The notes below the pieces were generated by a model. It had not been told where the DNA came from. It saw nothing but the letters and a program-made list of their open reading frames with translations, and did not search any database. Positions 36,862 to 37,185 of a DNA stretch of 64,000 nt are shown piece by piece. Each line of letters begins with the position of its first letter. The stretch's first letter is position 1. The position numbers and the translations under genes were made by a program. The stretch covers positions 21,554-85,553 of the forward strand of contig JAPPCZ010000053.1 in the NCBI GenBank assembly GCA_028824685.1. Reading direction: 5' to 3'. This DNA is from Candidatus Poribacteria bacterium (GTDB lineage Bacteria > Poribacteria > WGA-4E > WGA-3G).

Positions 36862-37185
36862 TATACGTTAGAAATTCACGATCTATTTGAATTTTTAGCG
36901 GTAGAGGTGCTTTTTCCGGTTTTCCGGATGCACCGACAGTGTTCAACAGACACTGCCGATGCCGAAGCACTGCCAGAGTATCCTTCTGACAGGCTGGTGT
37001 CTATCATAACACGCACAGACCTTATATGTCTACGTGTAATAATAGAGACCAGCAGCCTCTATAGAGATAGTAAAAACGGACACATACCAAATCAACGGTA
37101 TGAACGCCATTTAGGCGTTCCCCGCCTATTTCTGTAGTCTGTCAAGTATATTTAACCGACTCAATTATGATAGAGGAGGCACAAG
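36862..37185 (+). promoter_or_regulatory. Conserved, apparently structured ~320-nt 5' leader RNA (left copy)
   Basis: Multi-hairpin architecture shared with 47949-48224 (minus strand). Stems are conserved, loops are variable, and substitutions are G-U compatible. Ends in GAGGAGG-N6-ATG. Confidence 0.55.
37088..37121. mobile_element. R4 mini-element: a 34-nt insertion present in the left leader and absent from the right leader
   Basis: Left: GGACACATAC[CAAATCAACGGTATGAACGCCATTTAGGCGTTCC]CCGCCTATTTCTGT. Right arm (gene direction): GGACACATACCCGCCTATTTCTGT. Confidence 0.75.

Follow-up and report, generated by a model that had tools for sequence, protein, structure and literature searches.

The subject of this study is a long untranslated leader that precedes two operons for Cys/His-rich proteins in the genome of a Candidatus Poribacteria bacterium, a sponge symbiont, of which a stretch of 64,000 nt (the window, to whose positions all coordinates refer) was analysed. 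The left operon (37186..39970, + strand) is made up of three open reading frames (ORFs) with overlapping stop and start codons: gene 1 (37186-37446) encodes an 86-aa protein with an N-terminal hydrophobic helix and a Cys-rich extracytoplasmic tail, gene 2 (37443-38132) a protein of 229 aa, and gene 3 (38129-39913) a Cys/His-rich protein of 594 aa. Genes 1 and 2 are joined by an ATGA overlap, and gene 3 is followed by a hairpin and T-run (39933-39970), a clear intrinsic terminator that also follows the third gene in the right arm; a WD40 gene lies past it.

An earlier note on this DNA had placed one copy of the leader at 36862-37185 (+) and a second at 48224-47949 (-), each between a perfect consensus promoter and a GAGGAGG ribosome binding site (RBS), and this description holds. 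The sense promoter of the left operon (36827..36855, TTGACA-17-TATAAT) matches the sigma-70 consensus at 12/12 positions, as does that of the right operon (48231..48259, minus strand, read 48259-48231), and the predicted transcription starts are at about 36862 (+) and 48224 (-). Gene 1 begins with ATG at 37186 on the left and at 47948 on the right, giving leaders of 276-324 nt. A promoter of the TTGACA/TATAAT type, with single changes in a few of them, occupies the equivalent position in nearly all homologs whose sequence was printed, the loci without it being L004, L053 and L037 (homologous loci carry L numbers). The two leaders are about 85% identical and fold far better than their dinucleotide shuffles, none of which matched them (left, minimum free energy (MFE) -111.6 kcal/mol, z = -6.7; right, -88.4 kcal/mol, z = -6.2). 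Nucleotide similarity between the arms spans 36755-37567 and 48329-47567 (81% over 816 nt) and takes in only the promoter, the leader, gene 1 and the beginning of gene 2, past which the arms have diverged to the extent that their gene 2 proteins are 42-49% identical. Such a constant 5' module with variable 3' cargo may reflect gene conversion or a stronger constraint on the 5' module.

Homologs of the 229-aa protein were found in homology searches to be restricted to Candidatus Poribacteria. Eighty loci encoding it were taken from genome assemblies, and profile searches found the leader upstream of the same operon in 25 of them; five additional metagenome contigs carry it too. A covariance model matches the sense strand of all 30 copies, 28 of them at 105-148 bits (the right-copy leader with its start module, 47934..48224 on the minus strand, at 142.5 bits) and the divergent L037 and L053 at 56 and 48 bits, and every copy stands upstream of the same three-gene operon type. 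The model of the core has no other match above 29 bits in 570 kb, and its antisense matches are at or below 29 bits. Copies are spread over at least 14 Poribacteria genome assemblies, with 1-4 per assembly among the fetched loci and two in the window. Leaders of the homologs are 73-89% identical to the right window copy; in the distant paralogs L036, L052, L050, L016, L066 and L041 the identity of the gene 1 protein is 41-51%, and that of the gene 2 protein is 40-54% over all paralogs compared, the leader of divergent paralogs being thus more conserved than the genes. The earlier note had allowed that two copies with an equally conserved first gene could owe their likeness to duplication; with 30 copies, among which the leader outlasts the genes, recent duplication is, by sequence comparison, not the explanation. 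Of the 36 stretches picked up by a metagenome pattern scan only 5 are true homologs, and these come from a single metagenome project (LXNJ01). A scan of viral contigs gave one match, in a contig of 24,641 nt that has the same size as L089 of the metagenome scan, itself unmatched by the leader profile, and the Logan contig L118 holds a truncated DNA-level copy of the leader.

The window, both leaders and 20 homologous loci were compared with Rfam 15 (4227 models) in gathering-threshold and permissive (E <= 10) runs. At the gathering threshold only a tRNA of the window passes, with no leader match, and among the 20 homologous loci only RNase P; the permissive scans of both leaders gave nothing but noise with E > 3. 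The earlier note had not recognised a named Rfam class in the leader, and none is matched at the gathering threshold or at E <= 10. A search of the literature returned no paper linking Poribacteria with RNA motifs, riboswitches or any RNA regulator. Judged by its conservation, the leader is a real, conserved and previously undescribed folded RNA family that is absent from Rfam; it is new as a family, whereas the kinds to which it would belong, structured 5' leaders and cis-antisense control, are already known.

In single-sequence predictions the core (36899-37064 in the left leader) takes the form of a four-way junction closed by helices P1 and P2, which is the MFE structure, or lies within 1 kcal/mol of it, in 13/14 homologs tested. 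All five helices, a to e, that the earlier note had drawn by eye were found where it had placed them. Helix a (36867-36878 with 36888-36899), perfectly paired in the right copy and containing two G·U pairs in the left one, is the stem of H1, a 5'-terminal hairpin (36866..36900, +) that is supported by folding and covariation, starts 3-4 nt past the predicted transcription start in all copies and forms in 25/26 homologs (the exception is L045) despite differing stem sequences. In P1, which corresponds to helix b (36901-36907 with 37056-37062), UAGAGG (36902-36907, +) pairs with CCUCUA (37056-37061), and in P2, which is 99% paired, UGCU (36908-36911, +) pairs with AGCA (36966-36969). In the sense RNA two A·C mismatches are fixed in the hairpin P3, GCACCGACAGUG / CACUGCCGAUGC (36930..36962); this hairpin contains helix d (GACAGTGT, 36935-36942 with 36950-36957), which is correctly located but, owing to these mismatches, imperfect in the sense RNA. 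P5, CUGCCAGA / UCUGACAG (36970..36992), likewise carries a fixed C·A mismatch in the sense RNA. P6 (36993..37053, +), the same as helix e, is a helix of 12 bp (36993-37004 with 37042-37053) with a loop of about 37 nt, and P7, CUAUAGAGAUAG / CUAUUUCUGUAG (37059..37137, +), is a hairpin that forms in every homolog with a delimitable segment. Helix c (GGTGC, 36906-36910, with GCACC, 36930-36934) has the loops attributed to it, 19 nt in the left and 8 nt in the right copy, but covariation is absent from it, and its invariant GUGC has two further pairings that compete with it; because G36906-G36907 are common to helices b (GTAGAGG/CCTCTA) and c, the two cannot both form in full. On the minus strand of the right copy H1 lies at 48220-48186, the junction core at 48187-48035 and P7 at 48040-47996.

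The additional homologous leaders bear out several of these helices. In an alignment of the core (29 sequences, 42 pairs) compensatory changes occur in 13/42 pairs, a number reached by 0/500 shuffles; both sides of a pair have changed in 38 cells against 14.8 expected, and the covariation score is 0.146, as compared with 0.097 for the shuffles and 0.03-0.07 for slid controls. Covariation is seen at pairs 7:46, 8:45 and 10:43 of H1, at 7:176 (AU in 20 and GC in 6 sequences) and 8:175 of P1, at 84:102 (AU 19, GC 8) and 85:101 (GC 15, UA 12) of P5, and at 113:167 and 114:166 of P6. Pair 224:263 of P7 is GC in 11 and AU in 4 sequences, while 225:262 and 226:261 switch among GU, AU and GC. The wobble count of P6 in the sense RNA is 27 G·U against 3 A·C. 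As sense helices, H1, P1, P2, P6 and P7 are each supported by covariation or G·U pairs. The observation of the earlier note that stems are conserved while loops drift extends to the whole set, as in the two copies and 27 homologs indels fall in loops and junctions only, never in stems.

Downstream of P7 is a translation-start module (37134..37200, +). Its outer helix, P8, pairs GUAGUCUGUC (37134-37143), just after P7, with codons 2-5 of gene 1, GACGAGACUAC (37190-37200), and encloses an anti-Shine-Dalgarno (anti-SD) sequence CCGACUC (37156-37162), the SD GAGGAGG (37173-37179) and the AUG (37186); in the right copy P8 joins 47999-47990 with 47944-47934 around the SD (47961-47955) and AUG (47948) on the minus strand. 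P8 and the SD hairpin are part of the MFE structure in 24/24 homologs, at -15 to -23 kcal/mol. The SD hairpin forms in every homolog with a delimitable segment and occurs in two sequence variants with different registers.

Two findings bear on how the leader is to be interpreted, and the first concerns the loop of P6. A general promoter scan had flagged a site on the opposite strand of this loop in both window copies, and the alignment shows that an extended -10 sigma-70 site (TTGACA-like, 17-18 nt, TGnTAnnAT) is present there in 27/27 aligned homologs. In the left copy it lies at 37003..37032 on the minus strand (-35 TAGACA at 37032-37027, an 18-nt spacer, TG at 37011-37010 and -10 TATGAT at 37008-37003), and in the right copy at 48065..48094 on the plus strand (TTGACG-18-TAAAAT with TG); the predicted antisense starts, at about 36997 (-) and 48101 (+), fall in the complement of the P6 5' strand. 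The site has 9-11 of 12 consensus matches, with TG in 26/27. In the -10 element TAnnAT, T1, A2 and A5 are present in 27/27 and T6 in 26/27, and in the -35 element T(T/A)GAC(A), G3 is present in 27/27, A4 in 26/27 and C5 in 25/27. The spacer always has 17 or 18 nt, with a wholly different sequence between subgroups, and the conserved columns of the P6 loop coincide exactly with TGnTAnnAT and TTGAC, the columns in between being 33-81% conserved. When loops were shuffled, at least 9/12 matches with TG arose in 0.25% of trials and at least 10/12 with TG in 0.02%. In L037 and L053, the members that diverge most, the motif could still be read by eye. The nucleotides conserved in the helix e loop, which had looked aptamer-like, accordingly spell an antisense promoter in every homolog aligned.

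A second line of evidence comes from the strand on which each helix is more stable. Over the whole leader neither the sense nor the antisense strand folds more stably (mean difference +0.5 kcal/mol), which is unexpected for a purely sense RNA; this tie made whole-leader stability uninformative as a strand test, and it was replaced by an analysis of single helices. P6 and H1 are more stable in the sense strand (26/27, mean gain 4.5 kcal/mol, and 24/26, mean gain 3.8 kcal/mol, respectively), whereas P3 and P5 are more stable in the antisense strand (27/27, mean gain 8.9 kcal/mol, and 26/27, mean gain 3.7 kcal/mol). The proportion of standard pairs follows the same division, being 83.3% in sense against 98.8% in antisense for P3 and 86.2% against 94.7% for P5, as compared with 91.7% against 84.5% for P6 and 99.1% against 93.8% for P2. 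P3 and P5 prefer the antisense strand because their three fixed A·C or C·A oppositions turn into G·U in the complement, where P3 amounts to 12 bp, two of them G·U, and the C·A of P5 becomes U·G. Substitutions at the mismatch positions read GU, AU and GC on the antisense strand, a series that is normal for the evolution of a helix.

The transcript predicted from the antisense promoter would thus begin with these two helices, as its first 70 nt would be the complements of P5 (stem-loop 1) and P3 (stem-loop 2). In the left copy the predicted cis-antisense RNA has a minimal span of 36862..36997 (-), the complement of H1 to P5, and its fold is a set of discrete stem-loops with -48.1 kcal/mol (z = -6.05; the sense strand of this span has z = -4.2). 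In the right copy it is predicted, from its fold and a candidate terminator, at 48100..48353 (+); there the span 48100-48224 forms three clean hairpins (-51.0 kcal/mol, z = -6.9, MFE frequency 0.19), as compared with -39.3 kcal/mol and z = -3.75 for the sense strand of the same span. The possible intrinsic terminator (GGCGCGTTCTGTAAACGCGTC followed by T9, 48324-48353, +) has a similar hairpin in the closest relatives, L002 and L008, and in the right window copy and L002 it would end the RNA about 250 nt out. A U-tract after the P3 complement is found only in L050, L066 and L045, and a second subgroup has a hairpin and U7 inside the H1 complement (L014 and L103 by scan, L015 by eye).

Based on these data we propose that an antisense RNA encoded in cis controls the structured leader, in the manner of CopA/CopT or AapA1/IsoA1, a reading to which we assign a probability of roughly 0.55. 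The very strong sense promoter would produce an mRNA whose leader folds on itself, with H1 probably shielding the 5' end, and with the SD hairpin and P8 intrinsically restraining translation of gene 1 and, via coupling, that of the overlapping downstream genes. The promoter in the P6 loop would fire back toward the sense promoter and yield an RNA that starts with two very stable stem-loops, the exact complements of the mismatch-weakened P5 and P3. Computation shows the folds and how they are conserved, the promoter motif and the strand asymmetry; that this RNA is made, that it pairs with the leader and which way it might act we infer. It would dock on the leader via the P3 and P5 loops, to which its own are by construction perfectly complementary, and it would do so in a copy-specific manner, since these loops differ between paralogs (the P3 loops of the two window copies are UUCAACAGA and UAUUACACC). 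Loop drift would be expected if loops set copy specificity, by analogy with plasmid incompatibility groups. The duplex could then spread over the 5' 125-135 nt of the leader, dissolving P1 and P2, with the outcome that the mRNA is cleaved by an RNase III-type activity or decays, and/or that the CCUCU strand of P1, once freed, pairs with the SD, its complement. As the convergent promoters are about 125-135 bp apart, transcriptional interference may add to the effect.

In the CopA/CopT system of plasmid R1 the antisense promoter likewise lies inside the target leader and points in the opposite direction, and the antisense RNA has stable stem-loops whose loops are complementary to target hairpins. 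In systems of this kind the loop sequence sets specificity between related copies, and an effect on translation of the first ORF reaches the downstream genes by coupling. The Poribacteria module resembles it in the opposite promoter within the leader, the stem-loops, the loop specificity and the coupling, all of which are here predicted from sequence; it differs in being chromosomal, multi-copy and placed ahead of an operon for secreted or membrane proteins, in having its promoter in the loop of a conserved mRNA hairpin, and in that the antisense 3' end is not conserved. In AapA1/IsoA1 of Helicobacter pylori the SD is hidden by the fold of the mRNA, which makes kissing contacts with the antisense RNA through two stem-loops (PMC5416894). 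With this system and with hok/sok the leader would share long-range sequestration of the SD, two stem-loops in the 5' untranslated region (UTR) that kiss and then extend into a duplex, which is here predicted, and occurrence at multiple loci; unlike theirs, its first gene encodes 86 aa and heads a three-gene operon. H1 is reminiscent of the ompA 5' UTR and the aprE leader of Bacillus subtilis, having a stable hairpin within a few nt of the predicted 5' end whose structure is kept while its sequence varies, although H1 is the first of about eight helices and its stabilising role is inferred. The face-to-face arrangement of a strong and a weaker promoter, with about 125-135 bp between the predicted starts, recalls pR/pL of coliphage 186; unlike those of 186, the overlapping transcripts are, in the folding models, highly structured and look built for RNA-RNA pairing.

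Several observations weigh against this proposal. The antisense promoter is a consensus match, that is, evidence at the level of sequence. The 3' end of the antisense RNA is not conserved, its terminator-like sites differing by subgroup, and a terminator scan of the left window copy found none. There is almost no variation in P3 and P5, and hence the asymmetry rests on a few fixed positions and a handful of substitutions; in addition, the sequences are related, and a count of 27/27 does not amount to 27 independent events. The A·C mismatches of P3 and P5 could also be functional non-canonical pairs in the sense RNA. As to the restraint of translation, P8 is 94% paired, strict covariation is absent from it and its 3' strand is coding, which suggests a conserved pairing potential rather than a proven helix. 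Finally, the other leader types found ahead of homologous operons have no conserved antisense promoter, and antisense control is therefore not universal for the operon family.

The leader could instead be a constitutive structured 5' UTR with no sensor, in which H1 protects the 5' end, the leader and P8 set the half-life of the mRNA and a fixed low translation, and the antisense promoter only interferes or is unused. The position of H1, 3-4 nt from the predicted start in all copies, and the enclosure of SD and AUG in all copies agree with this view, as do the want of a conserved terminator for the antisense RNA and the fact that no condition-dependent element is demonstrated. It leaves unexplained, however, why P3 and P5 are optimised on the antisense strand (27/27 and 26/27) and why conservation in the P6 loop is confined to promoter-critical positions, and we consider it unlikely, though to be reckoned with.

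A small-molecule riboswitch, the interpretation favoured by the earlier note, would have the junction of P1, P2-P3, P5 and P6 as an aptamer for a small molecule or metal ion, with binding opening or closing the RBS; GUGCU, pairing with AGCAC (P2) or with GGCAC at the RBS, and GUAG, common to P7 and P8, would be the candidates for the switch. Of that interpretation, a conserved structured sense 5' leader with a multi-helix junction stands. The long leader between a strong promoter and the RBS, its covariation, the conserved sequestration of the SD and the failure to match Rfam are all in keeping with it; moreover, the invariant GUGC has three alternative GCAC partners, and RNAalifold chose the RBS pairing twice. 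Conserved junction nucleotides (GUGCU, AGCAC) also remain beside those that map to the antisense promoter or to G·U pairs. With the yybP-ykoY Mn2+ and czcD NiCo riboswitches the leader shares its length, a four-way junction that could stack coaxially in two ways, a sequestered SD and maybe metal-related genes; unlike them, it indicates no ligand, and its conserved unpaired positions are those of the antisense promoter. The conserved loop nucleotides and fixed mismatches that had suggested an aptamer are better explained by this promoter and by antisense G·U pairs. Furthermore, the pairing of GUGC with the RBS is broken in at least three homologs (L041, L014, L017) and is 4-13 kcal/mol less stable than the junction fold in 13/14 homologs, and covariation does not separate the alternative pairings of GUGC with its three GCAC sites or of GUAG in P7 and P8. 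The leader has no conserved intrinsic terminator, as judged by a scan of both window copies. Clues to a ligand are limited to weak protein motifs: the Cys/His-rich products and an HGDHWHE resembling a His-triad hint at metals, by a weak match (PF04270, E = 0.13; 2cs7, E = 0.92), nothing further was found among the proteins, and the 594-aa protein has no relative in the PDB. We therefore think ligand sensing by such a riboswitch improbable, slightly more so than a sensorless UTR, and control by an antisense RNA more likely.

The two ideas could be combined, with the four-way junction sensing a ligand, perhaps a metal, and thereby deciding whether the P3 and P5 loops are exposed to the copy-specific antisense RNA, so that a riboswitch gates antisense pairing. 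We regard this as a long shot. If it were true, paralogous surface-protein operons of one symbiont could be switched individually, even in a mutually exclusive manner.

The anatomy of the locus, a strong promoter, a long SD-hiding leader and a predicted two-stem-loop antisense RNA over the 5' UTR, also resembles that of type I toxin-antitoxin loci such as hok/sok and AapA1/IsoA1 (PMC5416894), and one may ask whether the 86-aa membrane protein is a toxin, with folding keeping its mRNA inert and the antisense RNA neutralising it. There are several copies per genome, and gene 1 encodes a small protein with an N-terminal hydrophobic helix. Yet at 86 aa, with its Cys-rich extracytoplasmic tail, the protein exceeds typical type I toxins (usually under 60 aa), it matches no toxin family, and its gene shares an operon, closed by a terminator, with two large genes that encode secreted or membrane proteins and to which the ATGA overlap couples it in translation; a toxin-antitoxin function is accordingly a shade more doubtful again. 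The motif GACAG / CUGCC, which recurs in P3 and P5 within highly conserved stems, might be a site for an RNA-binding regulator, possibly encoded in the operon, but no RNA-binding domain is found in the operon or conserved nearby and the non-canonical position of the motif is a G·U on the antisense strand, leaving little room for this explanation. That the leader has no function, its similarity reflecting recent duplication or gene conversion and its folding being incidental, deserves almost no credence and is already contradicted by the comparative data, for although gene 1 of the window copies is 91% identical in nucleotides and their likeness continues over the first ~125 nt of gene 2, the leader recurs in 30 copies, outlasts the genes in divergent paralogs and shows compensatory changes with indels confined to loops.

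Antisense control, if correct, would mean that one stretch of DNA is under selection for sense helices, antisense helices and a promoter hidden in a loop at once, and that the overlap of two RNA strands and a promoter can mimic a riboswitch. The strand test applied here to each helix (G·U against A·C) could be used on other orphan "riboswitch candidates". Since the leader stands ahead of operons for secreted Cys/His-rich proteins, the module probably governs a surface or extracellular system that is specific to the lineage. Poribacteria, symbionts of sponges, are uncultivated; both promoters fit the E. coli consensus, so that the module may be testable in E. coli.

Other readings of parts of the leader were tried and rejected. 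An attenuator terminator has its sole match at 37112-37128, which arises from a repeat insertion in the left copy, and none is conserved. An upstream ORF, MHRQ(C), starting from GGAGG and AUG in GAUGCACC, has ACG in place of its start in 3 homologs and elsewhere gives lengths of 4-69 aa in differing frames with variable SD-to-AUG spacing; a leader-spanning 96-aa ORF with a TTG start (36847-37137) is in the same frame and is judged spurious on the same grounds. H1 as a DNA operator or attC-like palindrome was discarded as well, as it keeps its pairing, with G·U pairs, while the sequence varies, and is in most homologs (24/26) more stable as the sense strand.

The repeat in question is a hairpin-forming sequence of 34-36 nt, CAAATCAACGGTATGAACGCCATTTAGGCGTTCCCC, in the P7 loop of the left copy only (37087-37122). 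Other Poribacteria genomes have it, 90-100% identical and in either orientation, at places unrelated to the leader (L008 5571-5635, L058 5745-5786, L011 1171-1210, L012 1890-1929, L022 2401-2439), because of which it looks like a small dispersed repeat of the repetitive extragenic palindrome (REP) or miniature inverted-repeat transposable element (MITE) type. The same P7 loop holds larger or nested versions of it in L003, L014, L017, L018 and L004. L012 (2362-2413) and L023 (2368-2419) each have, just ahead of the promoter of the full module, an additional truncated one that stops within the first bases of P3, after the promoter, H1 and the 5' strands of P1 and P2; it resembles what tandem duplication or recombination would leave behind.

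Two other long, conserved and hairpin-rich leaders, of about 200-300 nt before the first gene, precede homologous operons, and they too match no Rfam model. Type 2 occurs at L013, L030, L032, L061, L067, L073 and L076, and type 3 at L011, L019, L025, L028 and L075. The type 3 leader begins at a perfect promoter and holds a terminator-like GGGGGGUGCCCC followed by U7, and may be a candidate for an attenuator or riboswitch. In the type 2 leaders, and in L042, L001, L052, L045, L053, L006 and L009, an extended -10-like motif in sense orientation, TGATATAAT or TGGTATAAT, lies 10-25 nt upstream of the start codon, where it directly precedes or overlaps the anti-SD / SD hairpin. Both window copies lack this motif, which could act as a second promoter inside the leader and yield an mRNA with almost no leader.

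In the 229-aa protein, the sequence PHGDHWHEVP (residues 66-78, window 37638-37676) is nearly invariant across the protein family, its sub-threshold likeness given above being to the zinc-binding histidine triad (HxxHxH) of streptococcal Pht proteins. Divergent from the right operon, a second perfect 12/12 promoter (48594-48622, +) drives an HTH_37 (Xre-like) gene (48669-49013, +); this gene and a 179-aa ORF, which flank the window copies, are not found at other loci, and a conserved adjacent regulator was accordingly rejected. Both arms contain the same 32-nt segment, GGTCGCGATTCGGAGATCGCTCCTACAGAAGA, in the interval that separates the operon terminator from the WD40 gene (40113-40144 and 44861-44892); it has a diverged copy at about 40035-40064 and may be a short repeat family or a shared control element of the WD40 genes. 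Elsewhere the window carries a third WD40 gene (25840-27741), genes for large TPR proteins and for two proteins with sigma-70 region 4 domains, one of them also with region 2, and an IS605-family OrfB/TnpB-like gene (21810-23060, -; Pfam OrfB_IS605, Cas12f1-like TNB domain and HTH_OrfB_IS605).

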